Source: a virus
Length of the DNA stretch: 64,000 bases
UHGV virus genome: UHGV-0371537
Strand: one strand, 5' to 3'
A program made the position numbers and the translations under genes. This document shows, in pieces, positions 6,711 to 38,741 of the stretch (position 1 is the stretch's first letter; each line of letters opens with the position of its first letter). The notes below the pieces were generated by a model, which did no database searches, was not told the DNA's origin, and was given only the letters and a program-made list of their open reading frames with translations.

Positions 6711-6751
6711 CTAAATACCCCTAGATGAAACGAACACATTTAGGGGTATTT
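6711..6751 (+). promoter_or_regulatory. late-promoter-like CTAAATA plus 11-bp hairpin covering the SD region
   Basis: CTAAATACCCCTA (6711-6723) pairs with TAGGGGTATTT (6741-6751); ATG 6755 follows 3 nt later. Confidence 0.5.
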
Positions 6752-6754
6752 GAA

Positions 6755-9736
6755 ATGGCTAATAAACCAACACAGCCTGTTTTCCCTCTCGGTCTGGCGG
6801 CTGAAGAGCAGTCTACTTTGGCTGGTGTCCTCAACACGGGTACGATTGAGCATGGACCAGATGCTGTCCTGACTTTACCAGAGGGTAATGCCAGCGCAGG
6901 ACTCCCGTCTTCCGTTCGCTACAATGCCGACTCCGACGAATTTGAGGGCTTCTATGAAAATGGTGGATGGTTGCCGCTGGGTGGCGGTGGTATCCGCTGG
7001 GAAGTCCTTCCGCATGCCTCTACGGCAACGCTCACTGAAGGGCGAGGCTATCTCATTAATAATACCACAGGGGCATCTACAGTGGTTCTCCCTTCCCCTA
7101 CGCGTATTGGGGATTCCGTTACTATTTGTGATGCTTATGGGAAATTTGCCACTTACCCATTGACCGTGTCTCCTTCTGGAAATAATTTGTATGGCTCCAC
7201 TGAAGACATGGCTATAACAACTGATAACGTATCAGCAACGTTCACTTGGTCTGGACCTGAACAAGGTTGGATTATTACATCCGGCGTCGGTCTTGGCCAA
7301 GGTCGTGTCTACAGTCGTGAAATCTTTACAAAAATTTTGGCGTCTGAAACAAGTTCTGTCGCTCTCAATACTCCACCAACAATTGTGGACGTGTATGCTG
7401 ACGGAAAACGTCTTGCGGAATCCAAATATTCACTAGATGGGAATGTAATCACTTTCAGTCCTTCTTTGCCAGCCAACACAGAACTTCAGGTGATTGAATA
7501 TACTCCTATTCAATTGGGTAATGTCAGTGGTTCTGGTTCTTCTACGATTACCTGGGTCTATAATGGGGGTTCAGCGATTGGTGGTGAAACCGAAATCACG
7601 TTGGACGTCGTTGTTGATGATGTTCCGGCCATTGATATAAACGGAAGTCGCCAGTATAAAAATCTGGGATTCACATTCGATCCATTAACCAGTAAAATCA
7701 CTCTTGCGCAAGAACTGGAACCAGAGGATGAAGTTGTTGTAATTATCAATGGAACACCAAACATCTATAATCAAATTGATTATACTTTGCGGGAAGTTGC
7801 TCGAGCAACCAATGTTAAAGATACAGAGGTCGTTTATTTTAGTGTTGGTGCTGCGTTAAGTGGGTATAAAGTTATTTATGACAAGGAGACGCAAAGGGCT
7901 TATCCCTTGCCTGCTGATATTGTCCCTGGTACTACTGCTGTCAGTCTTAGTTCTTCCGCTATACTTGTGCATTCTGCTGGTAGTGTTGATCTGGGCGCAT
8001 TAGCTGTATCTCGTGAAGAATATGTTACATTGTCTGGGACATTTGATTCTGGTGCTGTCATCAATGTTAAAAATGAATTACTCACCCATACTGATGGAAA
8101 GTATCGTTGGGATGGTACACTTCCTAAAACCGTTGCTCCTGGCTCAACTCTTATGACAACAGGCGGCGTTGGTGTTGGCGCATGGATTAGTGTTGGTGAT
8201 GCTTCATTGAAGTCAGAATTGGCTAAACCTACAGGAGCAGGTTTTTCAGGTTTTGATAAGTCAATTGATTACGAAACTGGTACTGTTGGCAATGCGCTTA
8301 AGAAAATTATAAATGTCAACCCGGATATGTATCCATCATTACAGGATGCGATTGATGCTGCGGCAGCTTTAACAGGTTTAGAACATGCACCAAGTAGTGC
8401 TGCTAACCATCCTGACTGGCTACAACCTAACACTGTAAGCAAAGTTATCAGGCTGAATGGGAAGAAATATCCTATCAGTACGACACTACACATTCACGGA
8501 GATGTTAGCATTGATGCTGGTTTCGGTGGGGTGTACCTCACCGATGACTTCGTTGCAGACTCCTCTGGCTATGCTGTTAAATGCGATAAAGGGACGGGTA
8601 ATCAATACGCTGGGCATATCAGCAACTTATTAATTGATGCCCGTGCAAAAACTGTTAATGGGTTTAAGATATCCGATGGCTATGCTAACAAGTTAGAAGG
8701 CATTTACGTAGCCAACGTTGATGGTCATGGCATCCATATTGCTGGCGGTATGGGTGTGCACCTATTGAAGTTTTATGCTGTTGGTGTATTAAAACCAACT
8801 AATCCGCTCAGCACAGCCCACATTGTTGAAGGTAGCGATCATCAGGTTAGCATGGGTGAAGGTCGTTATTTCCGATTTGGTACCTGGGTTCGTGGTGGTG
8901 GTAATAACAGAATTGGTAAGGTGCACAACTGGGGCATGTATGACGATACAGTCACCGACCAGAACTCAAGGATGAAATGCTGCTTTGTTGTACAGAACTC
9001 AATAAACAATTCCTTCAATCAATGTTTTGCAGATTCTCCATCAAAATGGGACTACACGAAAGCTAATTTAGATCCTGTAGATGGTTATATTAACGGCGGG
9101 ATTGGTTTTTTTATTGATGGTGGAGCCACCGGTAATACGTTCTCTCAATGCCAGACGTTTGTGAATATGAATGCGTTTAATGACGCAGGGTTATCTGCAT
9201 ATGCGGCATCACTAATGCCATTCGCCGTTGGCAGTATCAATTGCTCATTCATTGAGTGTGAAAACTCAAACTCACCAGCATGGGTGGCAAGACTGATAAC
9301 TCATATTTACTCTGTGGATCAGGCATTTACTAACATACTCGCAGCTAAGAATTTTGTTGGTATAGAGTATGATATGGTTTGCAATGGTACAATTTTCAGG
9401 AAAAATGTTGGAGTTCCTGTATTGGTAAGAAATTCAAAGTTCGAGACGCCAACAGCAAGTTATGCGCCTAACTTTTCAGACGCATCTTACATCGCAGCTA
9501 CAGTTACAGGAGATGTAACAATAACACCAGCAGTATTAACAAATACACTAATTGGTTATGTTGAGGTTCTTTTGGCTGTCTATTCAACAACATCTAAAAC
9601 AATAACATTTGGTGCAAATGTTATATTAGCAAGTAGTACCCCATCTTTGACAGCAGCTGGAACACAAGTTTTTAGGTTGTCAACAACTGATGGAGGAACG
9701 ACTTGGTTCTGTAAGTTCGAGAGTGCTTACCCGTAA
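6755..9736 (+). CDS. tailspike protein, long form with N-terminal extension (TSP4-like)
   Basis: Internal anchor domain (aa ~350-510) paralogous to the N-termini of the 9839 and 15080 genes (VSREEYVTL, VKNELLTHT, KYRWDG); track start ATG 6725 lies in a hairpin loop, ATG 6755 follows the CTAAATA motif and hairpin. Confidence 0.8.
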   Translation: MANKPTQPVFPLGLAAEEQSTLAGVLNTGTIEHGPDAVLTLPEGNASAGLPSSVRYNADSDEFEGFYENGGWLPLGGGGIRWEVLPHASTATLTEGRGYLINNTTGASTVVLPSPTRIGDSVTICDAYGKFATYPLTVSPSGNNLYGSTEDMAITTDNVSATFTWSGPEQGWIITSGVGLGQGRVYSREIFTKILASETSSVALNTPPTIVDVYADGKRLAESKYSLDGNVITFSPSLPANTELQVIEYTPIQLGNVSGSGSSTITWVYNGGSAIGGETEITLDVVVDDVPAIDINGSRQYKNLGFTFDPLTSKITLAQELEPEDEVVVIINGTPNIYNQIDYTLREVARATNVKDTEVVYFSVGAALSGYKVIYDKETQRAYPLPADIVPGTTAVSLSSSAILVHSAGSVDLGALAVSREEYVTLSGTFDSGAVINVKNELLTHTDGKYRWDGTLPKTVAPGSTLMTTGGVGVGAWISVGDASLKSELAKPTGAGFSGFDKSIDYETGTVGNALKKIINVNPDMYPSLQDAIDAAAALTGLEHAPSSAANHPDWLQPNTVSKVIRLNGKKYPISTTLHIHGDVSIDAGFGGVYLTDDFVADSSGYAVKCDKGTGNQYAGHISNLLIDARAKTVNGFKISDGYANKLEGIYVANVDGHGIHIAGGMGVHLLKFYAVGVLKPTNPLSTAHIVEGSDHQVSMGEGRYFRFGTWVRGGGNNRIGKVHNWGMYDDTVTDQNSRMKCCFVVQNSINNSFNQCFADSPSKWDYTKANLDPVDGYINGGIGFFIDGGATGNTFSQCQTFVNMNAFNDAGLSAYAASLMPFAVGSINCSFIECENSNSPAWVARLITHIYSVDQAFTNILAAKNFVGIEYDMVCNGTIFRKNVGVPVLVRNSKFETPTASYAPNFSDASYIAATVTGDVTITPAVLTNTLIGYVEVLLAVYSTTSKTITFGANVILASSTPSLTAAGTQVFRLSTTDGGTTWFCKFESAYP

Positions 9737-9740
9737 AACT

Positions 9741-9766
9741 AACCCCCTCTTCGGCAGGGTTCTTGT
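9741..9766 (+). terminator. degenerate copy of the AACCCCGCTTCGGCGGGGTT terminator
   Basis: AACCCCCTCTTCGGCAGGGTT immediately after the tailspike stop at 9736. Confidence 0.35.
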
Positions 9767-9798
9767 TATACCTTTGTTCATAAATTTATTAGTTCAGC

Positions 9799-9834
9799 CT
9801 AAATACCCCATATTGGTCATCCTTTATGGGGTAT
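9799..9834 (+). promoter_or_regulatory. late-promoter-like CTAAATA plus 9-bp hairpin covering the SD region
   Basis: ATACCCCAT (9803-9811) pairs with ATGGGGTAT (9826-9834); ATG 9839. Confidence 0.5.
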
Positions 9835-9838
9835 TATC

Positions 9839-11788
9839 ATGATTTCTCAATTCAATCAACCACGCGGCTCCACTTCCATAGAAGTTAACAAACAATCTAT
9901 CGCTCGAAATTTCGGTGTCAAAGAAGACGAAGTCGTTTATTTCACTGCTGGTATTGATCTCAGTGGATTTAAAGTAATTTATAATGAGTCTACCCAACGG
10001 GCTTATTCTCTTCCTTCAGGTATTGTTTCAGGAACGACTGCTGTTAGTCTTAGTGCTAACGCTGTTCTTATGCACTCAGCTGGTTCTATAGACCTCGGAG
10101 AATTAGCCGTATCTCGTGAAGAATACGTTACATTGCCTGGGTCATTCACCTCGGGTGCTACGCTTAATGTTAAAAATGAATTGCTTACCCATACAACAGG
10201 CAAGTATCGCTGGGACGGGGAATTTCCTAAAACCGTTTCTGCAGGTTCTACCCCTGAATCTGCTGGTGGTGTTGGTCCTAGTGCGTGGGTTAGTGTTGGT
10301 GTTGCTTCTTTAAGAGCAGACCTGGAAAAACCAACAGGGGCAGGATTGATTGGATTTGGCTGTTCTCCATATATAAATAGAAATATTGGAGATGTTCTCC
10401 AGGATATACCAACGAACAAATATTTTGGTGCAAAGTGTGATGGCGTAACTGATGATACTGTAGCTAACCAAACTGCACTTGATTGGTCTGCTGACAATAA
10501 AAGAGATGTTATTTTTGTTGGAAAAAGCTGCATAACAAGCAGACTTGTACACAATTCAGGCTCCAGGGTAACACATCTTGGAGAGATCAAACCTCGTGAT
10601 TTTTCTGATGATGTTGTTATTGAGGTAAAGGACGATGCGTGGCGTGATCCTTACAATGATGGAATAACAGCAATCGATACTGGCGATAGAGTTCATATTG
10701 ATGGTCTATGTATTGCCCCTGACTCTGTAATAGATGCTGTTGGTATTCTTGGCACTGATGGAGTGGATCCGATCATATCAAGATTAAGAACATTCAACAT
10801 GAGAAGGGGAGGAATTAAGATTGTTAAGGGGTATGGATGGAACATATCAAACATTTCAATCATTGCACCTTTTGATCAAAATAACTCTCATGATTATGCA
10901 GGAATTAGGCATGAAACGTCAGATTCATTTTATTCTAGCGTTATAGTTTCAGGATATACTACTGGACTTGATATGCCTGGAAATGCTAATCAAGTATCAA
11001 AGGCCCACTGCTGGGGAATGTCATTACCAGATAGAACCACTCGTAATATGTTATTCGGCCTTAAAATGAGCGGTAGTGGTAATAACGTAGTGCAATTCTA
11101 TTCTGATTCTCCTAAAAAAATTGATAAAACACAAGCTGCAAGCATTACAAATGGTGGGATTGGCTATGTAATTTCTGGTTTTAACAACACATTTTTATCA
11201 CCTAGGAACCTATCTCATCAGGATTGTGGCTTGAAATATGGTAAGGTTTTTCTGATATCTGGTTCTGAGAATACCTTTATTAGCCCCTTAATAGGTGATT
11301 ATGACTACATTGAAGATGATGGATTTTTCACATTTACAGATTCGGCAAGCCCGCTAAACAACTATGTTTATGGTGGCAACATGCAATCTACATATTTGTA
11401 CCCAATTGCAAGTGGTAGCTATAAACCAACTGTAAACATCCCATGCACATACAGCTCTCAAATATATAACCATAATATCATTCAGAAAAATGTTATGGGA
11501 AGAGTTGTTATTACATGCAATATTACAAGTAATTCATCCGACGATCCATTCTATATACAACTGCCACCTTATCTATCAGCTGTATCTGGGATGGCAAGTG
11601 GATCAATAATTAACAACCTTACATCGTCAGTAAGAGCTGATAGCAACCTTTTTGCAGTCGAACCTTATGTTTCAAATGGTAAAATCTACTTCCGTAGATT
11701 ATTTAGATCTGGAGCTGCTGATGATATAAAGCAAAATATGCTTAACACAGGTAATGCTTTCTTTGATATATCAATAAATGCAAGATAA
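9839..11788 (+). CDS. tailspike protein, short form (TSP3-like)
   Basis: N-terminal anchor domain shared with the other three tailspike genes; 649 aa. Confidence 0.8.
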   Translation: MISQFNQPRGSTSIEVNKQSIARNFGVKEDEVVYFTAGIDLSGFKVIYNESTQRAYSLPSGIVSGTTAVSLSANAVLMHSAGSIDLGELAVSREEYVTLPGSFTSGATLNVKNELLTHTTGKYRWDGEFPKTVSAGSTPESAGGVGPSAWVSVGVASLRADLEKPTGAGLIGFGCSPYINRNIGDVLQDIPTNKYFGAKCDGVTDDTVANQTALDWSADNKRDVIFVGKSCITSRLVHNSGSRVTHLGEIKPRDFSDDVVIEVKDDAWRDPYNDGITAIDTGDRVHIDGLCIAPDSVIDAVGILGTDGVDPIISRLRTFNMRRGGIKIVKGYGWNISNISIIAPFDQNNSHDYAGIRHETSDSFYSSVIVSGYTTGLDMPGNANQVSKAHCWGMSLPDRTTRNMLFGLKMSGSGNNVVQFYSDSPKKIDKTQAASITNGGIGYVISGFNNTFLSPRNLSHQDCGLKYGKVFLISGSENTFISPLIGDYDYIEDDGFFTFTDSASPLNNYVYGGNMQSTYLYPIASGSYKPTVNIPCTYSSQIYNHNIIQKNVMGRVVITCNITSNSSDDPFYIQLPPYLSAVSGMASGSIINNLTSSVRADSNLFAVEPYVSNGKIYFRRLFRSGAADDIKQNMLNTGNAFFDISINAR

Positions 11789-11791
11789 ATA

Positions 11792-11822
11792 AGTAGAGCA
11801 GCAACATGATTGCTGCTCTACT
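11792..11822 (+). terminator. perfect 12-bp hairpin after the tailspike stop
   Basis: AGTAGAGCAGCA pairs with TGCTGCTCTACT around a 7-nt loop; weak T-tract. Confidence 0.4.
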
Positions 11823-11834
11823 TTCTCATACAAC

Positions 11835-11978
11835 CTAATTGAAGTTAGTGGGTATATTACAGGAGGTAAAATATTCTTTAGAAGGTTATTCAGAAGCGGC
11901 TCTCCTGTTGATGTTCAGATAACAGATCTGATAACAGGTTATGCATCAATAGACTTGAGCTTTACTTGCCAGCTATAA
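11835..11978 (+). pseudogene. vestigial C-terminal fragment of a tailspike gene
   Basis: Translates to EVSGYITGGKIFFRRLFRSGSPVDVQITDLITGYASIDLSFTCQL*, homologous to the last ~45 aa of the 9839-11788 tailspike (core GKI(F/Y)FRRLFRSG 11 of 12 identical) but divergent at DNA level; no start codon. Confidence 0.6.
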
Positions 11979-11983
11979 ACAAA

Positions 11984-12010
11984 AACCCCGCTTCGGCGGG
12001 GTTAGTTTTA
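11984..12010 (+). terminator. rho-independent terminator (AACCCCGC-TTCG-GCGGGGTT)
   Basis: 8-bp GC-rich stem with TTCG loop followed by T-rich tail. Confidence 0.7.
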
Positions 12011-12278
12011 TCATCAGAATGGTATTGAATCACTGTTGGTAATAGTAGGCTCATTGCCTCTTGGTTGGTTTGGATGCTGTTCAGTATAACCGGTTCCAAC
12101 CAAACCAATGAGGCAGTGGGTAAGGGGGGTTTTTGTTGTACCCCAAACAATTCATTAGGTAGACTGTTTTAGTCAATTACGACTTAACTAACCTGAGAAA
12201 ATCCCTATGGGAAATGAACCAGATAACGTAACTCTAGCCAGACTCGAAGAGAGACTGAGAAACATTTTCGAAAACCAA

Positions 12279-12305
12279 AACCCCGCTTCGGCGGGGTTCT
12301 TATTA
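12279..12305 (+). terminator. rho-independent terminator, second exact copy
   Basis: Identical 20-mer AACCCCGCTTCGGCGGGGTT followed by CTTATTAT. Confidence 0.7.
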
Positions 12306-12336
12306 TATCCATGTTCATAAATTTTATTAGTTCAGG

Positions 12337-12373
12337 CTAAATACCCCATATTGGCAAATCCTCTATGGGGTAT
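12337..12373 (+). promoter_or_regulatory. late-promoter-like CTAAATA plus 9-bp hairpin covering the SD region
   Basis: ATACCCCAT (12341-12349) pairs with ATGGGGTAT (12365-12373); ATG 12380. Confidence 0.5.
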
Positions 12374-12379
12374 CTTCAA

Positions 12380-15022
12380 ATGACCAGAAACGTCGAGAGC
12401 ATCTTTGGAGCGGTCGTAACAGCTCCGCACCAGATTCCATACACTTACACAGCAACGGGCGGAGAGAAGTTTATCTCCCTCCCGTTCTATCCTGTTACGG
12501 GCTTCATCACCATCAATGGGGGTGTTCAGGTTCCGACAGACAATTTCGAAATCGATGGTAACACTGTCAACCTGGGTCGAGCACTTGAGACCGGGGATGT
12601 TGTGTATTGCTTGTTTGACAAGATCCTGTCTCCAGAAGATTATGAAAACGGGATCCGCATCTACAAGTTCCAGACCGTTGGTAACGAGACCTCATTCACC
12701 CCAGACTTCACGACATATGGTGTGCAGTCTCTGTATGTTGACGGGAAGTTCCAGGTGCCGGACGTCAACTACACGTATTCCCCAACCAATGGTGTCGTTA
12801 ATTTCCTGACTGGATCTCCGGCGGCTGGTGTTTGGGTTGTTGCAGAAATGTCTGTGAAGCAGCCAAACATTTCCCCTCTCTTCGATAGAACAATTCAAGA
12901 AGTGGCCAGATCTGCGAAAGTTAAGGACTCGGATGTTGTTATCGCTGTATCCGGTGCTTCACTTTCTTCCAAGAAAGTCATCTTTGATAAAACTGCGCAA
13001 AGATGGTACTCGCTGTCAACCGGGTTGACTTCCACGGTGGTCAGTTTGGTTGATGGAATCCTCACTCACTCTTCAGGTACTGTTGATTTAGGTGCGCTGG
13101 CGGTTACTCGTGGCGAATATTTCACCATGTCTGAAACCTTCACAACCGGGTTCACAATCAGAGTGAAGAATGAGATCGTCAGCGACGGAACATATCTTTA
13201 TCGCTGGGCTGGTAGTTTGCCAAAAGTTGTTTCCGCTGGAACAACCGTGGACAACACCGGGGGTGTGAGTGCGAGTGCCTGGGTGAGATCAGATCAAAGA
13301 ACCATCAGCACCGTCAAGAGACAACTACAGCAATCCTACACGATGGCAGAATTAGTGGCCAAAACTGACATACAGTTGGGCGACTCTTTCCTTTGCTCGG
13401 ACAGGGCATATGGTGTTTATGACGTCGTTTCTTCGGTGGCTTACCCACCAAATGGTTATTCGAACGTAGTCAGCACAGTGAACTCCGGTTTGGTGTTCAG
13501 ACTGCGTGTGGTTGCTAACACAATCGATTTGGAGCAAATTGGTGGTAAGCCTCTCATCTGGGGAACCCAAGAAATCGACTGTAAACAGGCGTTGCAGGAA
13601 GCTTTCTATCTCTTGCTCGACTCCGAGAGCGCGACGGTTGATCTGAAGTCCAACAAATGGTTGCTGTCATCTTATGTGTTCAACGACGTCAAACAGCGCC
13701 GGAAAATTGTTGGTAACAACGCCATTATCTATGGGATGCCAGATGACGGTGTGACCAACTATGATTACCTGGTGAGTACTGCATGGAACTACCAAGACAT
13801 CGAAGGTGTTACGTTCGACTGTCAGTGGAACCCTCGTTATGCATGCTGTCTCCGTATCACTCATGGGTACGGACGATACGATGGCCTGACGATTCGTAAA
13901 GCTCGTTGCGCCATTCAGGTTGGTAAGAGCGAGGAAAGCCGGGTCAGCCTCAGCGAATTCATGTTCACACAACTTCGCACTGAAGAATGTGCGAAAGTCG
14001 CAATTGTTCACGGGCTTTATTCTGTGCTTAACATCAGCGATTCCATCGTGGCTTGCGGCGAGGGCGCTTTCTGGAAAACATATGACTGTACCGGGTTCAC
14101 CATCTATGGTGGTCGCGTATTCCTGATGAAATGTGGGGGCAACAGCAACGTCATCAACTTAGACAACCCTTATGTCTATTGCGCAAATACCACGGTTGCA
14201 GGCGCTCCATATATCGGTTCGTTCAACGCAGTGCAGTGCGACTTTGAATTCAGGACTCGCTTCTGCATCGTGAACGATACGACGACAGTTTATCAAGATT
14301 ACAACCAAGCAGTTGTTCTTGATTCTTGCCGAATTGGTGTATTCGCCAGCCTGGACTCTCGTGCGTTGAATTTCTTTGAAAGTAACGTCGGATACCGTGG
14401 GCAGCTCCGGATTAAGAACACAGATCTTCTGTTCGACACCACCGTGTCTCTGCCGCCGATCAAAGCTGGTGGGCATACCATCGTGGATATTGATTATGAT
14501 TCGATCTACATTCCTAACTTCAGGGGTCCAAAGATGGTCAGCTTCGCTGGTTATCCTCCGGTTCTTCCAGTCGGGATTGTGTTCCAGAACAACGTTGGGG
14601 CTGACACTCCTCTTTCTGGTAACCAGTTTGTGAACTTTTCTAACCCGATCATTGGCTTGGATTCTGATTCCTCTCTGCTTAGCAGCAACTGGAACTCGTC
14701 CACCAAGAAATTCGAATTGCCTCCTGGTGGCTTGAGTGATGTTACCGTCACTGTACGTCTGACATTGAAAGATCCTGCCACCGCCCCGGTGACAGCGTTG
14801 GTGGAATACAACAACGGCACAGCGATTGGACTTGCATTCGGGACAATCCCGGTTGGATCCAAAGATCTTTTGATCACTGGCAGGATCCGGGATCTTCGAG
14901 ATACAGCCCAGATATATTGTATCACGAGTTCTACAGCGGCGTACACCCTCAGCAATACCGGGGCATATGACTCTACTATGACAATTGAGGCCAGCATTCG
15001 GCCTCCGAAGACTAAAAGTTAA
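12380..15022 (+). CDS. tailspike protein, long form (TSP2-like)
   Basis: Internal anchor domain (VTRGEYFTM, VKNEIVSDGTYLYRW); track start ATG 12365 lies in the 3-prime arm of the promoter-proximal hairpin, ATG 12380 is in frame 15 nt downstream. Confidence 0.75.
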   Translation: MTRNVESIFGAVVTAPHQIPYTYTATGGEKFISLPFYPVTGFITINGGVQVPTDNFEIDGNTVNLGRALETGDVVYCLFDKILSPEDYENGIRIYKFQTVGNETSFTPDFTTYGVQSLYVDGKFQVPDVNYTYSPTNGVVNFLTGSPAAGVWVVAEMSVKQPNISPLFDRTIQEVARSAKVKDSDVVIAVSGASLSSKKVIFDKTAQRWYSLSTGLTSTVVSLVDGILTHSSGTVDLGALAVTRGEYFTMSETFTTGFTIRVKNEIVSDGTYLYRWAGSLPKVVSAGTTVDNTGGVSASAWVRSDQRTISTVKRQLQQSYTMAELVAKTDIQLGDSFLCSDRAYGVYDVVSSVAYPPNGYSNVVSTVNSGLVFRLRVVANTIDLEQIGGKPLIWGTQEIDCKQALQEAFYLLLDSESATVDLKSNKWLLSSYVFNDVKQRRKIVGNNAIIYGMPDDGVTNYDYLVSTAWNYQDIEGVTFDCQWNPRYACCLRITHGYGRYDGLTIRKARCAIQVGKSEESRVSLSEFMFTQLRTEECAKVAIVHGLYSVLNISDSIVACGEGAFWKTYDCTGFTIYGGRVFLMKCGGNSNVINLDNPYVYCANTTVAGAPYIGSFNAVQCDFEFRTRFCIVNDTTTVYQDYNQAVVLDSCRIGVFASLDSRALNFFESNVGYRGQLRIKNTDLLFDTTVSLPPIKAGGHTIVDIDYDSIYIPNFRGPKMVSFAGYPPVLPVGIVFQNNVGADTPLSGNQFVNFSNPIIGLDSDSSLLSSNWNSSTKKFELPPGGLSDVTVTVRLTLKDPATAPVTALVEYNNGTAIGLAFGTIPVGSKDLLITGRIRDLRDTAQIYCITSSTAAYTLSNTGAYDSTMTIEASIRPPKTKS

Positions 15023-22629: not shown

Positions 22630-22948
22630 TATCATTGATGTCAAGTCCATCCTGACAGGAGTACTGACGGCGGCGATAGTCTCCGTGGGCTCTGTAGTTT
22701 GGATGATGGGTAAATTTGAAAACCGTCTTGACGTGGTTGAGCGAGATTCCACCAAAGTAGACCAAATTTTGACCAAGGTCAACGACATGAGCGAGAAGAT
22801 CGCTGTGCTGAACACAGACGTCAACTACGTCAAGCAGAATGTTGCTGAGCTAAAACTCAATAGCAGCAGTCTGTCCGACGACGTGCGCACTCTGCGGATC
22901 ACAGTCGCCGATCTCCAGAGCAACAAGGGGAACGTCAATGGCCGTTAA
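22610..22948 (+). CDS. hypothetical membrane-anchored coiled-coil protein (112 aa)
   Basis: ATG 22610 with AGGAGG SD 6 nt upstream (track start is TTG 22586); hydrophobic segment ILTGVLTAAIVSVGSVVWMMG followed by heptad-like sequence. Confidence 0.45.
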   Translation: MSTSTNNIIDVKSILTGVLTAAIVSVGSVVWMMGKFENRLDVVERDSTKVDQILTKVNDMSEKIAVLNTDVNYVKQNVAELKLNSSSLSDDVRTLRITVADLQSNKGNVNGR

Positions 22949-23690
22949 TTCAATCACAGATCGCAAAGGGTTTATGAATTACATCCTCAAGAAATTGGGG
23001 GCACCTGTAATTCAGATTAACCTTGACCCAACACAGGTGTCAGACGCTGTTGACGACGCTCTTCAGAAATTCTGGGAGTACCACCGTGATGGTAGTCAGG
23101 ACGCGTTCTTCGTCCATGTCGTGACTGAAGACACGATCACCAATGGTTACATCGAATTCCCCAAAGATATCGATGACGTCACAGAAGTCATTCCTGGCCC
23201 ACCAATCGAATCTATCGGTAACTGGGCGACACCTCAATGGCAGATGGCTCAGGCCATGTTGGTGCCAAAGTCCGCTCTGGTATCTATCCGCCTGATCGAC
23301 TATGTGTCCATGCAGCAGCGCCTGTCTGACATTACCAGTGTTCTGAACGTGAAGCGCACCTTCGTGTACAAGAAATTCCAGCGCAGACTCTATCCTCAAT
23401 TCGCCCTGACGAAGGACGAGGCTCTGGCGTTCAAATGTTTCCAGAACATCGACCCAGAGGTCGAGGGGAATGAAGAAGCATGGAATGACATGTGGCTGAA
23501 GGCATATGCAACAGCGCTGGTAAAACGTCGCTGGGCTGAAGTACTCAAGAAGGCAAGAGGCATCCGTCTCCCTGGCGGTATTGAGCTGGATGGTGATACT
23601 ATGTTCAGTGAGGCTGAAGCGGAGATCGAGCGTTTAGAGGAAGAACTTCGTACTGGCCAGCAATACCCGATTGACTTCTATATGGGATAA
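22938..23690 (+). CDS. gp13: neck protein, T4 gp13-like
   Basis: N-terminal ILKKLGAPVIQINLDPTQV and C-terminal LPGGIELDGD..EAEIERLEEELR resemble T4 gp13 termini. Confidence 0.8.
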   Translation: MAVNSITDRKGFMNYILKKLGAPVIQINLDPTQVSDAVDDALQKFWEYHRDGSQDAFFVHVVTEDTITNGYIEFPKDIDDVTEVIPGPPIESIGNWATPQWQMAQAMLVPKSALVSIRLIDYVSMQQRLSDITSVLNVKRTFVYKKFQRRLYPQFALTKDEALAFKCFQNIDPEVEGNEEAWNDMWLKAYATALVKRRWAEVLKKARGIRLPGGIELDGDTMFSEAEAEIERLEEELRTGQQYPIDFYMG

Positions 23691-23717
23691 GGAAAGGCGG
23701 GTTCCCCCGCCCTTCTT

Positions 23718-23930
23718 TTAGATTTTCAAATCCAGGTTTCCGTTGCCACTACCACGCAGCAGGCCGTCTTCGGTCTTGTCTTTGGAGTTCCACCACTCGA
23801 TGAAGTCTGTGTCATCCACTTCCTTCACCAGACCGACGATGTCGTAATCACCGCCTCCAATCTTGGCATCCACACAGATGATTCGGACGCGACGACCGCT
23901 GCGAACTTCTTTGATGTCTTCCACTTGCAT
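23718..23930 (-). CDS. hypothetical protein (70 aa)
   Basis: Minus-strand ORF inserted with the T5orf172-like gene between gp13 and gp14. Confidence 0.35.
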   Translation of the reverse strand: MQVEDIKEVRSGRRVRIICVDAKIGGGDYDIVGLVKEVDDTDFIEWWNSKDKTEDGLLRGSGNGNLDLKI

Positions 23931-23959
23931 GAGTTATTCCTCAAAAGAATAAACTTCGA

Positions 23960-24676
23960 CTAAATACCTTCAAACGTATTTCTGATAAATTCGATAATAC
24001 GACTTTCATGTTTAAACCATTCAGTCGCACCGTCAAATCCCTTGTAGTTCATACTAAATGACATTTCATGAGCCTTTCTTTCCAGTTCTAACACGAATTG
24101 TCCATCATTTGACTTAAAAACTTCTAGAACATTGAACTCAAATGGAGTTGATCTTCTTAAAGATTTAAATCTATTATTTGGTGAATTGGACACCCCGATT
24201 TTCATACAGCCTTCTTCGCTGGTCAATATGTACAAATAACCGACTTTAAAAGGATTGTATCCGGAAGTTGCGCAGTAGGGGCACCAACTTTTACCATTCA
24301 CCAAATTACAGTATCTTGACTCCCAACGATGTCCTTCTGAACATTCCATAAGGCAAACTGTCACATTATCTTTATACTTTCCACCAATAAATTCTATGAA
24401 TTTACCACCGTTGGTTTCAGCATGGTCGGTTATTCTCTTTTTAGATTCTTGCTGGGTATTTCTCTTGTTGCCATTACATGTTGGGCACCAACTGCCTTTA
24501 TTGATCAAATTTCCATAAGATGCTGAACTCCATTGATGCCCTTCACCACACTGTAATATACATTTTGTCTGATTAGTGATAAATTTATCACCAACGAATC
24601 CCTGGAACAAACCACCTTTAGATAAGGCATATTTGTGAAGATTTTGAATAGCAGTTTCTTCTGTCAGGATTTTCAT
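23960..24676 (-). CDS. T5orf172 (GIY-YIG superfamily) domain protein with two N-terminal zinc ribbons; homing-endonuclease-like
   Basis: Two repeats C-x4-C..GH.W....C.L.N.KSWCP.C then GYLYIL....MKIGVSN....R..SLRR.....EWF, typical of T5orf172/MUG113; opposite strand between two neck genes. Confidence 0.65.
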   Translation of the reverse strand: MKILTEETAIQNLHKYALSKGGLFQGFVGDKFITNQTKCILQCGEGHQWSSASYGNLINKGSWCPTCNGNKRNTQQESKKRITDHAETNGGKFIEFIGGKYKDNVTVCLMECSEGHRWESRYCNLVNGKSWCPYCATSGYNPFKVGYLYILTSEEGCMKIGVSNSPNNRFKSLRRSTPFEFNVLEVFKSNDGQFVLELERKAHEMSFSMNYKGFDGATEWFKHESRIIEFIRNTFEGI

Positions 24677-24733
24677 ATTATCTAACCTTTAACAATATTC
24701 AACTAAATATATTTAAATCCTGAGGAATAGATC

Positions 24734-25384
24734 ATGGCCACTTCTCGATATTTTAACTACACCAATCACCAAGGCACGCAGAAGCTGATTGAAGATTTGG
24801 TGCAAGAAATGATTCAATTGCGTGGGATAGACATCAAGTATATACCACGTTCCATCGTTGAAAAATTTCCTATCACCAACGATGCCAACCACCGTTTCGA
24901 CCAGGCGTTCGACATCGAAGCGTACATGCAGGATTACCAGGGCTTCAACACCCAGATGTGGGAGAAGTTCGGGGGCATCCAACTGCAGGACGAAGTCACG
25001 TTCTCTATATCTCGCCGTCGATTTTCTGAAGTGATTGGTAACGGCGTTGGCCTGGAGCAACAGCCTCAAGAAGGTGATTTGATCTATCTGCCTCTAGCGA
25101 ACAAGATCTTCAAGGTTAACAACCCGAACAATGATGAAGACTTCATGCAGTTCGGGAAATGGTACACCTATTCTCTACCATGCACGTTGTTCCAGTATGG
25201 CAACGAGAACTTCGACACAGGCATGCCCGAGATTGATGACATCGATAAGCGCTTGTCTATCCTGGATGAGGAAGAGGAACCGGGCGTGTATAAAGATTCG
25301 TCTCTTCAGACAGACAATGCTCAGGCCGATACGTTGGAGCAAGGTCTTGCACCAGACAATCTGAAGATTGATTTTGGAGATTAA
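24734..25384 (+). CDS. gp14: neck protein, T4 gp14-like
   Basis: EGDLIYLP and YTYSLPC motifs as in T4 gp14; synteny gp13-gp14-gp15. Confidence 0.75.
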   Translation: MATSRYFNYTNHQGTQKLIEDLVQEMIQLRGIDIKYIPRSIVEKFPITNDANHRFDQAFDIEAYMQDYQGFNTQMWEKFGGIQLQDEVTFSISRRRFSEVIGNGVGLEQQPQEGDLIYLPLANKIFKVNNPNNDEDFMQFGKWYTYSLPCTLFQYGNENFDTGMPEIDDIDKRLSILDEEEEPGVYKDSSLQTDNAQADTLEQGLAPDNLKIDFGD

Positions 25385-26082: not shown

Positions 26083-26783
26083 TTATGAGTGCTATGTCAG
26101 AACGCCTGTTAAACACCCTTGGCGCTATCCAGGCGCGGGATGAAGTCGCTCAAGAAGTCATGGAGAAGACCGCGCCTGTGGCTGGAAAAGATTATGATCC
26201 GGATACAGGTGAATGGTTGGGTGAAAGACCTGCAGGGTATGAGCCTGTGGTGTTCCCTCCTTCACTGGATCCAGAAGAGCTGAAGTCAAAGGAATCCAAA
26301 GTTCCAGACTTTGATGACACGGATGCCACCACGGATTACAAACGCATCCGTGATACGACTTATGCGATGCAGGAAGCCACGATGTTCATGATGGGACAGG
26401 CGGCCAAACTCGCAACGACCACAGAAGCGCCTCGGGCGTTCACAGTCTTCAAGGAGTTGGGTGAACTCATGCGCGGCCTGAACAAAGACCTGATGGAGAA
26501 CCAGAAGACCATCAAGGCTGTTACGGGCGACAAAGAGCCTCCTGAAGAGACGACTGTTGAGGTCACGACTTCCCCTGATGGTACAACGACAGTCAACGTT
26601 GGCAAGCAAGCCAGATCTTCTCGTGATTTACTCAAGACTATTGAAGAGGCGCGCAAACGGGCTGAAGAGCGTACTGCGGCCAAAGCTGTAGGTAAAGAAG
26701 AGAAAGCCGAAGATGTGATCGATGTCGAGGCAGAGCCACAGCCGAAGGAAGAAGGTGAAGACAATGGCGTATCAGAAGCGTGA
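26079..26783 (+). CDS. gp16: terminase small subunit, T4 gp16-like
   Basis: Overlaps neighbours by 4 nt at both ends; central region resembles T4 gp16; charged C-terminus. Confidence 0.7.
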   Translation: MIMSAMSERLLNTLGAIQARDEVAQEVMEKTAPVAGKDYDPDTGEWLGERPAGYEPVVFPPSLDPEELKSKESKVPDFDDTDATTDYKRIRDTTYAMQEATMFMMGQAAKLATTTEAPRAFTVFKELGELMRGLNKDLMENQKTIKAVTGDKEPPEETTVEVTTSPDGTTTVNVGKQARSSRDLLKTIEEARKRAEERTAAKAVGKEEKAEDVIDVEAEPQPKEEGEDNGVSEA

Positions 26784-28974
26784 TGTAGAATACGCCCCGC
26801 TCAAGACGGGGTTTAAGACAGAAGACGTCAGACTGCGTATGGACCAAACGTTCATGCGCAAGCCGTCTGTGCGTGCTCCTCGCGTGGAGTTGATGCTAAC
26901 AGATGAGCAGGAATCGGAGTTCGTCGAGTGCGCGATGGATGCCCATTACTTCGCCGCCAACTACTACAAGATCACGACCATCGATAAAGGCTTCATCCTC
27001 TTTGACATGCACGATTACCAGAAGCAGTTGTTCCATGACTTCCAGGACTATCGATTCAATGCGGTCGTCCAGGCTCGTCAGTCTGGGAAATGTGTAAAAG
27101 GTGACACGCTTGTCACAGTTTACGATACTCTCAGCCAAGAAGAGTTCAGCATCACCGTCGAGGAGCTTCACAGCCGCTTCGAGGGACCGAATCATGCTGA
27201 GCCACTGAATGCCTTTGGTAAACACGATAAGTTCGTAGACAGCCGCTTCGGCAAGCGTTATTTTGTTCGCTGTGATAAGGGCTGGGTTCCGGTTATTGCA
27301 GCACACAAGACAAAACAGTATCAGGAATATGTGGTAATCACGACCACAGGTCGACGCATTCACGTCGCTGATGACCACATGTTCTTCAACAGCCACATGA
27401 AGGAAGTATTCGCCAAAGACCTGGAAGCCGGGTCTCTGCTCCAGACTGAAAATGGTTTGGAAGAAGTTGCAGAAGTGTGGCAGACAGGTGAAATGCACCA
27501 TATGTTCGACCTGCAAGTCAAGTCGAGCGATCAACGATATTACACAGGCGGTTTCCTCAGCCACAACACGACCGTCGTGGCAGCGTTCCTGCTCTGGTAT
27601 GCGATGTTCCACTCCGACAAAGAGATCGCAGTACTGGCGAACAAAGAGAAGCAGGCCATTGAAATCCTTGACCGTATCCGCAAGGCTTATCAGGATCTGC
27701 CATTCTTCCTACAACAAGGTTGTGAGAAGTTCGGTTCTACTCTGATCGAGTTCGAAAACGGTTCTAAGATCTATGCATACGCAACATCATCGGACTCCAT
27801 CCGTGGTCGTTCAGTATCACTCCTGTATGTCGACGAAGTAGCGTTCATTGAAAACGACTTTGAGTTCTGGGAGTCTACATTCCCTGCGATTGCATCTGCA
27901 GAGACTTCCCGTTGTATCCTGACCAGTACACCAAAAGGCCAGCGCGGGTTGTTCTACGATATCGTCACCAAGGCGAATCCAGACCACCCACAGTACAACG
28001 ACTTCAAACTCACGGAGGTGCCTTGGTATCGTGTGCCAACATACACCAAGGATCCAAACTGGGAATCCAAACAGAGGGCGAAGCTGGGGGATGCACGTTT
28101 CGATCAGGAATTCGGTATCAAGTTCCGTGGTTCCGTTGGTTCATTGATCCCGGCCAAGTGTCTGGACAAAATGACCTCGAAGCTCTATCTGGAGCCGAAC
28201 GAGTTCACCAAGATCTACCACGAATACGATCCGAAGCGTATCTACATGGGCATCGCAGATACAGGCAAGGGTGTGGAGGGGGATTACTCTGTTCTGACGA
28301 TATTGGACATCACAGACTACCCTCACAAGATTGCGGCCAAGTATCGAAACAACACGATACCGCCAATGATGTATGCATACACTATCGCCGATATGGGCGA
28401 GAAGTATGGCACATGTCCAATGCTGGTAGAAACCAACAACGACGTGGGTGGTCAGGTAATCACAATTCTATATCAGGAAATTGAATACCCAGAAATCATC
28501 TTCACCACAACAGATGCGAAGGGTACTGGTAAACGAATTGGCGGTCGTCGACCTGAACCTGGTATCAACACCAACAAGAAGGTTCGATCAAACGGTTGTG
28601 CTAACCTCAAGGCGCTTATTGAACGTGAAATGTTGGTTATTGATGACCAAGATACAATTGACGAACTCAGTACATTCGTATGGACTGGGACAAGGTATGA
28701 AGCCGATGATGGTTGTCATGACGACTGTGTAATGCCTCTTGTGCTCTATGCATGGGCGGTGAAACAAGAATGGTTTAGTGATCTCACCAACTCCAGCATC
28801 TCGGTTGATATGAGGGGGCGGTTGTCTGCGATGGAAGAATCTCAGATGATGCCTTTCGGCGGGGTTCTTTCAGCTCCCGACCCACACTCTGTCGAGAGCA
28901 TACCGGGCTTTGGTGGAGTCCAGGTTTATGACGAACGTTCCGGTATGACCATGGAAGAATGGCTGAGACGGTGA
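26764..28974 (+). CDS. gp17: terminase large subunit (gp17-like) carrying a mini-intein in the Walker A loop
   Basis: Exteins read VVQARQSGK|TTVVAAFLLWYAMF (Walker A) and resemble T4 gp17 ATPase and nuclease regions; start taken at ATG 26764 (track ATG 26722 also possible). Confidence 0.9.
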   Translation: MAYQKRDVEYAPLKTGFKTEDVRLRMDQTFMRKPSVRAPRVELMLTDEQESEFVECAMDAHYFAANYYKITTIDKGFILFDMHDYQKQLFHDFQDYRFNAVVQARQSGKCVKGDTLVTVYDTLSQEEFSITVEELHSRFEGPNHAEPLNAFGKHDKFVDSRFGKRYFVRCDKGWVPVIAAHKTKQYQEYVVITTTGRRIHVADDHMFFNSHMKEVFAKDLEAGSLLQTENGLEEVAEVWQTGEMHHMFDLQVKSSDQRYYTGGFLSHNTTVVAAFLLWYAMFHSDKEIAVLANKEKQAIEILDRIRKAYQDLPFFLQQGCEKFGSTLIEFENGSKIYAYATSSDSIRGRSVSLLYVDEVAFIENDFEFWESTFPAIASAETSRCILTSTPKGQRGLFYDIVTKANPDHPQYNDFKLTEVPWYRVPTYTKDPNWESKQRAKLGDARFDQEFGIKFRGSVGSLIPAKCLDKMTSKLYLEPNEFTKIYHEYDPKRIYMGIADTGKGVEGDYSVLTILDITDYPHKIAAKYRNNTIPPMMYAYTIADMGEKYGTCPMLVETNNDVGGQVITILYQEIEYPEIIFTTTDAKGTGKRIGGRRPEPGINTNKKVRSNGCANLKALIEREMLVIDDQDTIDELSTFVWTGTRYEADDGCHDDCVMPLVLYAWAVKQEWFSDLTNSSISVDMRGRLSAMEESQMMPFGGVLSAPDPHSVESIPGFGGVQVYDERSGMTMEEWLRR
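27091..27567 (+). mobile_element. mini-intein (159 aa) within the terminase large subunit P-loop
   Basis: Starts Cys (CVKGDTLV), ends HN followed by Thr +1; blocks F/G-like MFDLQVKSSDQRYYTGGFLSHN; splits GK|T of the Walker A; no endonuclease domain. Confidence 0.8.
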
Positions 28975-35786: not shown

Positions 35787-35838
35787 AACTACTAAGTAAT
35801 TTCAACTTAACTGAATATCAATGTAAGGAATGAGCATC

Positions 35839-37161
35839 ATGGCTAAGAAACTTGTAACCGAAGAAATGCGCAAAGAGTGGCTGCCTGTTCTTCAAAAAGA
35901 ATCTGAACAGATCCAGCCTCTGTCTGCCGAAAACGTCGCTGTCCGTCTCCTGGAAAACCAGGCTGAGTGGAACGCCAAAAACCTGGGTGAATCCGAAGCC
36001 CCTGGCTCTCTGAACAACACTGTCGGTAAATGGCAGCCAGTTCTGATTGACATGGCTAAACGTCTGGCTCCGATCAACATCGCGATGGACTTCTTCGGCG
36101 TTCAGCCGCTGTCTGGTCCTGACGGTCAGATCTTCGCACTGCGTGCTCGCCAGGGCGTTGCAGATAGTTCCAACACCGCGCAGTCTCGTAAAGAACTGTT
36201 CATGCAGGAAGCTGATTCCGGCTACTCTGGTGACGGTACTGTACAGGCTGGCGACCCATCTGGCTTTACCCAGGCTGAAATCGAAGGTTCCGGCGCTGGT
36301 ACAACCACCATCGGTAAAGGTATGCCAAGCACCGACGCTGAACTGCTGGGTACTACCACCAACCCATGGGCGCGTGTTGGTATCACCGTGCAGAAAGCTA
36401 CCGTGACTGCGAAGTCTCGCGGCCTGTACGCTGACTACAGCCATGAGCTGCGCCAGGACATGATGGCGATTCACGGCGAAGACGTGGACAGCATCCTGTC
36501 TGACGTGATGGTCACTGAAATTCAGGCGGAAATGAACCGTGAGTTTATCCGCACCATGAACTTCAGCGCAGTACGCTTCAAAAAATTCGGCGCAAACGGC
36601 ATCGTGGACATCTCCACCGATATCTCCGGTCGTTGGGCTCTGGAAAAATGGAAGTACATGACTTTCATGCTGGAAGTTGAAGCGAACGGTATCGCCGTTG
36701 ACACCCGTCGTGGTAAAGGGAACCGTGTTCTGTGTTCTCCGAACGTAGCATCTGCCCTGGCGATGTCCGGCATGCTGGATTACGCTCCGGCGCTGCAGGA
36801 AAACACCAAGCTGGCGATCGACCCAACTGGCCAGACCTTCGCTGGTGTTCTGTCTAACGGCATGCGCGTTTACATCGACCCGTATGCAGTAGCAGAGTAC
36901 ATCACCCTGGCATACAAAGGCGCGACCGCGCTGGATGCTGGTATCTTCTTCGCGCCGTATGTGCCGCTGGAAATGTACCGCACCCAGGGTGAAACCACCT
37001 TCAGCCCACGTATGGCGTTCAAGACCCGCTACGGGATTTGTGCTAACCCATTCGTTCAGATCCCAGCGAACCAGGATCCACAGGTCTATGTGACTGCGGA
37101 TGGTATCGCCCAGGACAGCAACCCTTACTTCCGTAAAGGGTTAATAAAAGGCCTGTTTTAA
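35839..37161 (+). CDS. gp23: major capsid protein, T4 gp23-like
   Basis: GVQPLSGPDGQIFALRA, KTRYGICANPF and C-terminal YFRKG resemble T4 gp23; ATG 35839 preferred over 35830 on SD spacing. Confidence 0.9.
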   Translation: MAKKLVTEEMRKEWLPVLQKESEQIQPLSAENVAVRLLENQAEWNAKNLGESEAPGSLNNTVGKWQPVLIDMAKRLAPINIAMDFFGVQPLSGPDGQIFALRARQGVADSSNTAQSRKELFMQEADSGYSGDGTVQAGDPSGFTQAEIEGSGAGTTTIGKGMPSTDAELLGTTTNPWARVGITVQKATVTAKSRGLYADYSHELRQDMMAIHGEDVDSILSDVMVTEIQAEMNREFIRTMNFSAVRFKKFGANGIVDISTDISGRWALEKWKYMTFMLEVEANGIAVDTRRGKGNRVLCSPNVASALAMSGMLDYAPALQENTKLAIDPTGQTFAGVLSNGMRVYIDPYAVAEYITLAYKGATALDAGIFFAPYVPLEMYRTQGETTFSPRMAFKTRYGICANPFVQIPANQDPQVYVTADGIAQDSNPYFRKGLIKGLF

Positions 37162-37190
37162 TAATTAAAACAATGGCTTACGTCCTAACA

Positions 37191-37220
37191 AACCCCGCTT
37201 CGGCGGGGTTTTTGTTTGTT
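37191..37220 (+). terminator. rho-independent terminator after the major capsid gene, third exact copy
   Basis: AACCCCGCTTCGGCGGGGTT followed by TTTGTTTGTT. Confidence 0.75.
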
Positions 37221-37268
37221 CATAATACCAAACAGGTTATACTAGATACCATACGAAGGAGAACAATT

Positions 37269-38741
37269 ATGTATCAGGTAATCTGTAGTGTCTGTCATGA
37301 ACAGTTCAAAGCATCCAGGAAAGATAAGAAATTTTGTTCAGATGGTTGTAAAACGTTTTCTAGCAACACATTGAAAAATCTATCACCGGAATTTGTTGCT
37401 GATGCGACGTGCCTTTCGGATGAAGAATCTTATCGTCAATTTTTCCATAAACACATGTTCACTAAGAACAATAAATTGGATATTCAGAAATGCAAATCTA
37501 ATTTGTTAATGAAGCACATCAGATTGGACCTGTTGATATTTGCCAACGCCCATAACACCCTACAAGATCTGGCCTGTAAAGTCACAGCATGGTTACACAA
37601 TAGAACCGTGAAAATGTGCCCTGTGTGTTCCAAAGAAACCAACTTTTACATCAATGACAAAGATTACAGAACATATTGTTCCGAAGAATGTTATCAGATT
37701 TCTATGTGTAAAGGCGGGGTTGGTCGGAAAGCTATAGAGGCTTCAAATATATCCAAATATGGGAGCTGCTCTACACTACAACTACCTGGTGTGAGGAAGA
37801 AGGCGTTGATAACATTACAAGAACGTTATGGTGTTGACAATCCCATGAAAAACTCGATCATATTGAAACGTGCATTGTTTAACAATGGTTCTGTCAGGAA
37901 TAAGAAATCTTCTTATGAAAAAGAAATATCCGAGTTCCTCACCTCAATAGGAGTTGTGAACAAGGTTTCTAATTACAGTATATTGTCAGGCAAACAATTG
38001 GATATCTACTGCCCGGAACACAAACTTGCAATAGAATTCAATGGGTTGTACTGGCATTCAGAAGTTTTTAAAGAAAAACGGTATCATCTAGAAAAGACTG
38101 AAATGTGTGAATCTCAGGGTATCCAGTTGATCCATATTTGGGAAGACGAATGGGCTGAGAAACAGGATGTGGTCAAATCTCTTCTGAAGGCAAAACTCGG
38201 CATTAAAACGCCTGTCTCATACGCTCGCCAACATAAAGTTGTTTGGGGTAATATAAACGGTGTGAGGGAGTTTCTAGACGCCCATCATATACAAGGTTCC
38301 GTGTCGTCCACCCACCACTTATCGCTAATTGATAAGGCTGGTGTGATACAGGCCGTGATGTTGTTTACCAAAAGGAAAGATGGCCTGGAATTAGTCAGAT
38401 TTGCCTCTAATGATTGCCACGGGGCGTTCAGTAAACTTCTATCGCACTTCAGAAGGAAATTTGTTGGTGTCCCAATCTATTCTTTTGGCGACAGGTGTGT
38501 CGTAAGCAGGCTGTCGAACATTTACCTATCCCACAGGTTCATAGAAGAGGAAGTACAGAAGCCGGATTACAAATATCACAAGCCTGGTACATTTATGCGT
38601 GAGCACAAGTTCGGTTTCAGAAAAGATTCATTTGCTCGGATGGGTTATGACATAGAAGGCAAAACAGAAAGCCAGTTAGCAACCGAAGCCGGGCTGGTCA
38701 GGATTTGGAATTGTGGTCTGATCAAATATACCTTGAACTAA
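37269..38741 (+). CDS. freestanding homing-endonuclease-like protein with zinc fingers and a Vsr-like PD-(D/E)xK domain
   Basis: LAIEFNGLYWHSE matches the Vsr/DUF559 signature; CxxC/CxxxC clusters at the N-terminus; track start 37173 would read through the terminator at 37191. Confidence 0.65.
   Translation: MYQVICSVCHEQFKASRKDKKFCSDGCKTFSSNTLKNLSPEFVADATCLSDEESYRQFFHKHMFTKNNKLDIQKCKSNLLMKHIRLDLLIFANAHNTLQDLACKVTAWLHNRTVKMCPVCSKETNFYINDKDYRTYCSEECYQISMCKGGVGRKAIEASNISKYGSCSTLQLPGVRKKALITLQERYGVDNPMKNSIILKRALFNNGSVRNKKSSYEKEISEFLTSIGVVNKVSNYSILSGKQLDIYCPEHKLAIEFNGLYWHSEVFKEKRYHLEKTEMCESQGIQLIHIWEDEWAEKQDVVKSLLKAKLGIKTPVSYARQHKVVWGNINGVREFLDAHHIQGSVSSTHHLSLIDKAGVIQAVMLFTKRKDGLELVRFASNDCHGAFSKLLSHFRRKFVGVPIYSFGDRCVVSRLSNIYLSHRFIEEEVQKPDYKYHKPGTFMREHKFGFRKDSFARMGYDIEGKTESQLATEAGLVRIWNCGLIKYTLN

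Follow-up and report, generated by a model that had tools for sequence, protein, structure and literature searches.

Genes and features of the locus

The DNA considered here is a 64,000-nucleotide stretch of the virus genome UHGV-0371537, and the whole of this stretch is referred to as the window. Between the neck genes gp13 and gp14, and on the strand opposite to both, it carries a gene encoding 238 amino acids, which is treated as a candidate T5orf172-family homing endonuclease gene (HEG). The window can be assigned to an Ackermannviridae genome that is nearest to Agtrevirus and Limestonevirus: a 3.8-kb stretch around the locus matches 205 phage records, the best of which are Limestonevirus and Agtrevirus phages with 83-88% nucleotide identity. 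The features of the locus are collected in Table 1.

An earlier model-generated annotation of the window (the original prediction) placed two minus-strand open reading frames (ORFs) in about 1 kb between gp13 and gp14, and this description is accurate; the gap measures 1043 nt and its contents are orf70 and the 238-residue ORF. Nucleotide identity of gp13 to the genes of Ag3, EspM4VN, and LIMEstone1 is 87-92%, and gp15, gp16, and gp17, recognized by Pfam or PHROG matches, follow gp14 in that order. The GC content of the 238-residue gene is 36.3%, that of orf70 is 51.2%, and that of the window is 48.6%. The hairpin between gp13 and orf70 is likely a bidirectional terminator; the Ag3 record marks the homologous site as a rho-independent terminator for both strands, and the LIMEstone1 record marks it as a terminator.

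Table 1. Features of the gp13-gp14 locus, with positions in the window
Feature	Position	Strand	Evidence
gp13 neck gene, head-tail adaptor, left resident flank	22938-23690	+	phrog_211, E 4e-42
GC-rich hairpin GGCGGGTTCCCCCGCC between convergent gp13 and orf70	23696-23711		terminator scan
orf70, 70 aa, resident Ackermannviridae gene	23718-23930	-	phrog_4466, E 3e-34
Orphaned native gp14 late-promoter-like motif CTAAATACCT	23960-23969	+	CTAAATAYMY motif scan
Candidate T5orf172 HEG, 238 aa	23960-24676	-	Pfam, PHROG, composition, distribution
T5orf172/MUG113 nuclease domain, residues 146-230	23987-24241	-	Pfam
Zinc module 2, residues 74-135	24272-24457	-	internal repeat; conserved C112, H116, C132, C135
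Zinc module 1, residues 5-67	24476-24664	-	internal repeat; conserved C43, H47, C64, C67
Cassette-borne divergent spacer, 57 nt, GC 23%	24677-24733		motif CTAAATATAT and gp14 ribosome-binding site (GAGGAA)
Second late-promoter-like motif CTAAATATAT, within near-palindrome TAAATATATTTA	24703-24712	+	motif scan
Recoded gp14 codons 1-5 (ATG GCC ACT TCT CGA), right end of converted tract	24734-24748	+	occupied/empty site comparison
gp14 neck gene, head closure, presumed endonuclease target gene	24734-25384	+	Pfam T4_neck-protein, E 2e-28; phrog_679, E 1e-71

Domains of the 238-residue protein

The larger ORF had been predicted to encode tandem zinc modules and a T5orf172 domain, and both parts of this description are borne out. 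The two zinc modules share 41% identity (E 1e-18) in an internal repeat comparison, and the positions of their Cys and His ligands are nearly invariant in an alignment of 28 sequences. Homologues of the zinc region carry PF14311 or PF21817 (DUF4379 or CapR), with E values down to 3e-42, and the AlphaFold2 (AF2) model of the zinc modules has predicted local distance difference test (pLDDT) values of 85-93. The profile search that had been proposed for T5orf172 and MUG113 gave scores above the Pfam gathering thresholds for both over residues 146-230, with 32.8 bits for MUG113 (PF13455) against a cut-off of 22.3 and 30.8 bits for T5orf172 (PF10544) against a cut-off of 20. The protein also matches phrog_681, which is named "endonuclease" (E 2e-59). 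T5orf172 is placed in the GIY-YIG clan of Pfam. Across five orthologue clusters the conserved residues of the nuclease domain are G146, Y149-I150-L151, K159, G161, R169, E199, H203, and T218-E219-W220-F221, with Y149, R169, and E219 invariant among the alleles described below.

Other searches with this protein gave little. A phmmer search against the Protein Data Bank (PDB) returned a chance match only, a scan of NCBIfam returned no match, and no paralogues were found elsewhere in the window. The only defence-system candidate from PADLOC was PDC-S57, matched over 47 residues (E 5e-5), and a role as a defence-system component was rejected on the weakness of this match together with the NCBIfam result.

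Distribution and allelic diversity

Orthologues with at least 60% amino acid identity were found by tblastn in 49 phage records, and a blastn query with the gp13-gp14 region matched about 290 records, of which 49 span the insert. Among IMG/VR loci, five of 19 are occupied by the gene. The closest relatives, Ag3 and EspM4VN, lack the gene; their flanks have 80.6-98.6% identity to the window. Mutine, a Kuttervirus belonging to a different subfamily (Cvivirinae), has a copy with 95.2% nucleotide identity to that of the window, whereas the flanking genes are only 72-79.5% identical and orf70 of the two phages gives no nucleotide match. Another version of the gene is common to Limestonevirus and Kuttervirus, the proteins of LIMEstone1 and pertopsoe having 93% amino acid identity (dS 0.24). 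Transfer of the gene across subfamilies is evident from these comparisons.

At least five allele groups occupy the same site: type A (the window, Mutine, and SS9), a variant in Salmonella phage Se-J, type B (LIMEstone1, pSal-SNUABM-02, pertopsoe, PhaxI, and EP75), and two further alleles on metagenomic contigs, P0002 and P0003. Amino acid identity among the groups is 59-75%, and 83-84% between type A and the Se-J variant. The Se-J allele (locus L006, 2273-3202) encodes 309 residues with an extra N-terminal zinc module, which appears as a second tblastn match with 41% identity, and its right junction, ATGGGCACTTCTAAATACTTTAAT, is different; these features suggest the gain of a module and a shifted or altered target. 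All eight of the alleles sampled are intact. The dN/dS ratio is 0.08-0.29, including 0.21 between the window and Mutine, except for the nearly identical pair of LIMEstone1 and pSal-SNUABM-02, where a value of 0.44 comes from 11 substitutions. The gene is under purifying selection.

Junctions of the insertion

The motif CTAAATAYMY has 10 copies in the window (2825, 6711, 9799, 12337, 17447, 23960, 24703, 28978, 41187, and 44369), all on the plus strand, while 0.54 would be expected. Nine of the copies lie a few tens of nucleotides 5' of a plus-strand ATG, the exception being the copy at 23960. From this distribution in the window the motif is probably the late promoter of the phage; confirmation of CTAAATA as the late promoter of the family was not found in the papers available.

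Empty sites have the form GACTAAATACCTTCAAAATTGAGGGTA....ATGGCyACTTCAAAATATTTCAAC, which comprises the CTAAATA motif, a ribosome-binding site (RBS), and the first codons of gp14, with the motif 34 nt upstream of the gp14 ATG. In occupied genomes the right end of the insert reads CAACTAAATATATTTAAATCTTGAGGAA....ATGGCTACTTCTCG(A/T)TAyTTCAA, nearly alike in types A and B and similar in P0002 and P0003. This end is a second, diverged copy of the motif, the RBS, and the gp14 start, beyond which sequence typical of the recipient lineage resumes. LIMEstone1, pSal-SNUABM-02, Mutine, and pertopsoe have divergent genome backgrounds, yet their spacers are nearly identical, and those of two further occupied loci (L038 and L039) are similar. 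About 10 of 60 positions distinguish the right end in the window, taken as the spacer and the 5' end of gp14, from the common cassette end. In the LIMEstone1 record, a putative late promoter is annotated for each strand of the spacer.

The left ends are of two kinds. Type B and the P0003-type allele have a remnant of the native promoter, the RBS, and ATGGCyACTTCAAAA(TAT) abutting the 3' end of the HEG, in the form characteristic of the recipient's lineage. No such remnant is present in type A, to which the window belongs, or in the P0002-type allele; it may have been lost by deletion between two CTTCAAA repeats. Without the remnant, the HEG reading frame continues into the promoter motif, and its stop codon, TAG, belongs to the reverse complement of CTAAATA. 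The gene is flanked by promoter-motif copies in the type A, type B, P0002, and P0003 alleles. Those of the window are at 23960 and 24703, the former orphaned, with no gene downstream of it, and directed antisense into the HEG. Foreign sequence in the window extends from 23975 to 24747 or beyond, in place of 29 native nucleotides, for a net gain of 744 nt.

Changes at the start of gp14

Codon 5 of gp14 is AAA in all 17 of the empty sites read. In occupied genomes of types A, B, P0002, and P0003, codons 4-5 are TCT CG(A/T), the change in the window being from TCA AAA to TCT CGA, and the Se-J genome has other changes. Positions 12-14 of the gene differ in every comparison of an occupied with an empty site for types A, B, and the metagenomic alleles. 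The most informative pair is Mutine and the HEG-free phage CBA120, whose gp14 genes differ at seven of 642 positions, all within the first 36 nt, and whose left flanks differ at four of 444 positions. This cluster of differences looks like a co-conversion tract. In the Se-J comparison, 12 of 15 gp14 differences fall in the first 42 nt. The converted tract of the window appears to stop just past codon 5; its extent is only roughly bounded, since the search for a near-isogenic phage lacking the HEG found none.

Homing as a probable explanation

From its domains, composition, distribution, and junctions, the 238-residue gene is very probably a mobile, free-standing HEG of the T5orf172 family located at the 5' end of gp14. 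The moron label of the original prediction does not suit it, as the hallmarks are those of a free-standing homing endonuclease rather than of cargo that benefits the host. We infer DNA binding and cleavage by the protein, its exact target, its expression timing, and active homing of the window copy.

Homing at this site would begin when a phage with the HEG and a relative without it infect the same cell. The two N-terminal zinc modules would bind the conserved gp14 start, around ACT TCA AAA TAT TTC AAC, and the C-terminal T5orf172 domain would cut the gp14 DNA of the HEG-free phage. Phage recombination would then repair the break from the HEG-containing genome and import the HEG together with the promoter motif, RBS, and recoded gp14 codons. 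The resulting allele would be immune for two reasons: the halves of the target are separated by the insertion, and the replacement 5' end of gp14 is recoded from TCA AAA to TCT CGA. Type B genomes retain native sequence to about position 21 of gp14 with no apparent harm, which makes it probable that the recognition site extends across the insertion point. The right-hand duplicate would have to be recoded to avoid recreating that site.

A more specific proposal, which has slightly less than an even chance of being correct and is put forward tentatively, is that the cassette is a self-contained unit for "5'-end replacement" homing, which enters the first codons of gp14 with a substitute late promoter, RBS, and recoded start. 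If so, gp14 would stay expressed while the recognition site is destroyed, and the type B remnant ATGGCyACTTCAAAA(TAT) would mark the original point of breakage or insertion, at gp14 codons 5-7. The near-isogenic pair Mutine and CBA120 would then be a suitable system for the first experimental demonstration of T5orf172 homing, and on DNA with hypermodified thymidines. The window encodes a 5-hydroxymethyldeoxyuridine (5-hmdU) DNA kinase at 50894-52093 on the plus strand (PF18723, E 4e-81). Such a kinase implies hypermodified thymidines (PMC8472413), so an endonuclease acting at the T-rich start of gp14 would have to cut modified DNA.

Several observations weigh against homing as the explanation, either for the gene or for the window copy. 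The nuclease domain has low confidence in the AF2 model (pLDDT 44-62); the order of its elements, strand-strand-helix-strand-helices, is compatible with GIY-YIG only at this confidence, and a Foldseek search of the model against the PDB gave nothing below E 0.08, leaving the GIY-YIG fold unconfirmed. The DUF723 match of the zinc region is below threshold in a direct Pfam scan (E 0.3). TCT at codon 4 of gp14 is also seen at one of the empty sites (L010), so that a change in codon 4 alone is no marker of immunity. Divergence of the window copy from its nearest known allele is 5%, and this copy may therefore not have moved recently; the search for a near-isogenic HEG-free genome gave flanks at best 80-92% identical. 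In addition, Barth, Dunham & Seed 2023 (PMC10448857) state that homing by the T5orf172 genes of ICP1 has not been experimentally verified.

Some of these points bear on the possibility that the window copy is an inactive relic, which homed in the past but is now fixed in its lineage and no longer cuts or moves. An exact-sequence look-up of the gene found no identical copy in the databases, and the diverged spacer and gp14 5' end of the window, together with a conversion tract as short as five codons of gp14, are what a relic could have. However, the reading frame is intact, the dN/dS ratio against Mutine is well below one, and every motif residue conserved among the alleles is retained; a relic is therefore unlikely.

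It is quite unlikely that the T5orf172 protein has been domesticated, either as a CapR-like regulator of the divergent gp14/HEG promoter or as a nuclease directed against competing phages or satellites in the manner of ICP1 Odn. CapR-type zinc modules of the same kind serve the PLE satellite as a transcriptional repressor, and Odn, which is a T5orf172 nuclease, has a defensive role (PMC10448857). The gene also adjoins a near-palindromic, promoter-like spacer, and purifying selection would be expected of any functional protein. Presence in 49 of about 290 relatives at a single site, near-identity across subfamilies, and a 36-nt conversion tract are nevertheless the pattern of homing and not that of a conserved regulator, and the motifs of the nuclease domain are invariant among the alleles. 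Cutting the gp14 of competitors, for its part, would in practice amount to homing or marker exclusion.

The resident gene orf70

While mobility, as originally predicted for the gene pair, holds for the T5orf172 gene in view of its variable presence, foreign GC content, and similarity across subfamilies, it does not hold for the small ORF. The gene orf70 lies antisense between gp13 and gp14 in all Ackermannviridae relatives examined, at occupied and empty sites alike. Its normal GC content, its presence in every one of these relatives, and its tracking of host-phage phylogeny make it a separate resident gene of the Ackermannviridae, outside the insertion. Amino acid identity of orf70 follows the lineage of the phage and not the presence of the HEG: the protein of the window is 99% identical to that of Ag3, and Kuttervirus copies are 97-100% identical among themselves. 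At the places listed for contigs encoding a protein identical to orf70 of the window, the HEG site is empty in 10 of 10. Homologues of orf70 form 19 clusters, in which the named members are all Ackermannviridae phage proteins and no Pfam domains were found. The orf70 protein has a weak Tudor-like resemblance.

The original prediction asked whether gp13 and gp14 are adjacent in relatives, and within the family they never are; the gap at empty sites is 299-302 nt (Ag3, EspM4VN, and CBA120) and holds orf70 and the hairpin without the 238-residue gene. Since only the latter varies among relatives, a single insertion of the gene pair is ruled out. Nor is the pair kept in all relatives, as an assembly factor might be, conservation holding for orf70 alone.

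It is hardly credible that the two minus-strand genes are one inserted moron or accessory module, or act jointly in neck assembly. They are adjacent on the same strand, might be co-transcribed up to the gp13/orf70 terminator, and include the one weak PADLOC domain-level match, but orf70 occurs irrespective of the HEG, is native in GC content, and follows host phylogeny. About 83% of relatives lack the HEG, which therefore is not needed for assembly, and the LIMEstone1 record marks gp13 and gp14 as confirmed structural proteins, not ORF152 and ORF153. The same absence from about 83% of relatives rules out a structural or assembly role for the HEG by itself.

Comparison with known homing endonuclease genes

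Although the locus has some particular features, the 238-residue gene is an additional member of an already known family of T5orf172 HEGs and in this sense an ordinary finding. As in the HEGs described in PMC10448857, repeated N-terminal zinc modules of the CapR/DUF723/DUF4379 type precede a C-terminal T5orf172 domain, and the gene is free-standing beside an essential structural or packaging gene and variably present, like those of ICP1, T5-like, and Vibrio phages. Homologues were found by tblastn in 734 phage records, including ICP1 genes annotated as putative homing endonucleases, but the HEG of the window is only 28-36% identical to T5orf172 HEGs outside the Ackermannviridae. The terms "Ackermannviridae," "Kuttervirus," "Limestone," and "neck" have no occurrences in PMC10448857, and no description of a duplicated, recoded promoter and gene start like that of this locus was found in the text available.

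The closest known counterparts are orthologues at the same site in other Ackermannviridae. Those of the Kuttervirus phages Mutine, SS9, and barely have 94% amino acid identity to the window protein, that of Se-J has 83%, and those of LIMEstone1 (ORF152), PhaxI, EP75, and pertopsoe have 63%. The GenBank orthologues share the site between orf70 and gp14, the orientation, and the cassette-borne right end, except that the right end of Se-J differs; relative to them the spacer of the window is a diverged version. The window has a type A allele in an Aglimvirinae-like background, whereas the type A records listed are all from Salmonella phages and the four that were checked (Mutine, SS9, barely, and Se-J) are all Kuttervirus. 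Some of the orthologues are annotated as "endonuclease" or "putative GIY-YIG endonuclease" in later records. The 2012 paper on LIMEstone1 listed 14 HEGs; a text search of it for "ORF152" finds nothing, and the record calls this ORF a hypothetical protein. Aglimvirinae carry 14-25 HEGs at variable positions (PMC8472413).

The locus also resembles intronless homing in T4 in outline. There, a free-standing GIY-YIG gene (SegF, SegG, or SegB) next to a conserved gene brings about cleavage of the HEG-free allele when a relative infects the same cell, and it spreads while nearby markers are co-converted; sequence differences keep the resident allele from being cut. The Seg proteins are canonical GIY-YIG enzymes with NUMOD or helix-turn-helix (HTH) motifs, while the protein considered here has a nuclease domain of the T5orf172 subfamily and zinc modules. 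The T4 insertions are simple intergenic ones; the insertion in the window lies within the first codons of the presumed target gene with a replacement 5' end.

The main value of these results is for annotation: an opposite-strand gene in a late structural cluster is a candidate selfish nuclease gene, and its small neighbour is resident and not cargo. With several divergent alleles sharing a site, near-isogenic genomes with and without the gene, and a target remnant, the locus is nonetheless a clean natural system. It could be used to ask whether T5orf172 proteins home, what they recognize, and how insertion at the very start of an essential gene can be tolerated. The category of the element, a known type of selfish element, is unchanged by the target remnant, the near-isogenic genomes, or the duplication and recoding of the gene start.

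Other features of the window

Two further ORFs in the window are probably HEGs. A 522-residue ORF at 37173-38741 on the plus strand (GC 40%), directly 3' of the gp23 major capsid gene (35830-37161), has weak matches to DUF559, to the MTES_1575 restriction-endonuclease-like family, and to zinc-finger families, and is probably another free-standing HEG. A 309-residue ORF at 52153-53082 on the plus strand (GC 39%) has a NUMOD3 motif, lies directly 3' of the 5-hmdU DNA kinase gene, and is probably a third HEG.

The gene for the terminase large subunit gp17 (26722-28974) contains a mini-intein-like insert of 159 residues (residues 124-282; 27091-27567). The first residue of the insert is Cys and its last two are His-Asn, with Thr next in the protein, and the insert splits the Walker A motif (ARQSGK/C...SHN/TTVVAAF, with the insert between the slashes). 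The Pfam match to Terminase_6N begins only at residue 283, and the 736-residue terminases of relatives have a faint match to Intein_splicing. Three consecutive tail-spike genes, each with Tail_spike_N, occupy 6725-15022 on the plus strand; GC content across much of them is 35-43%, which fits the usual exchange of receptor-binding modules in Ackermannviridae.

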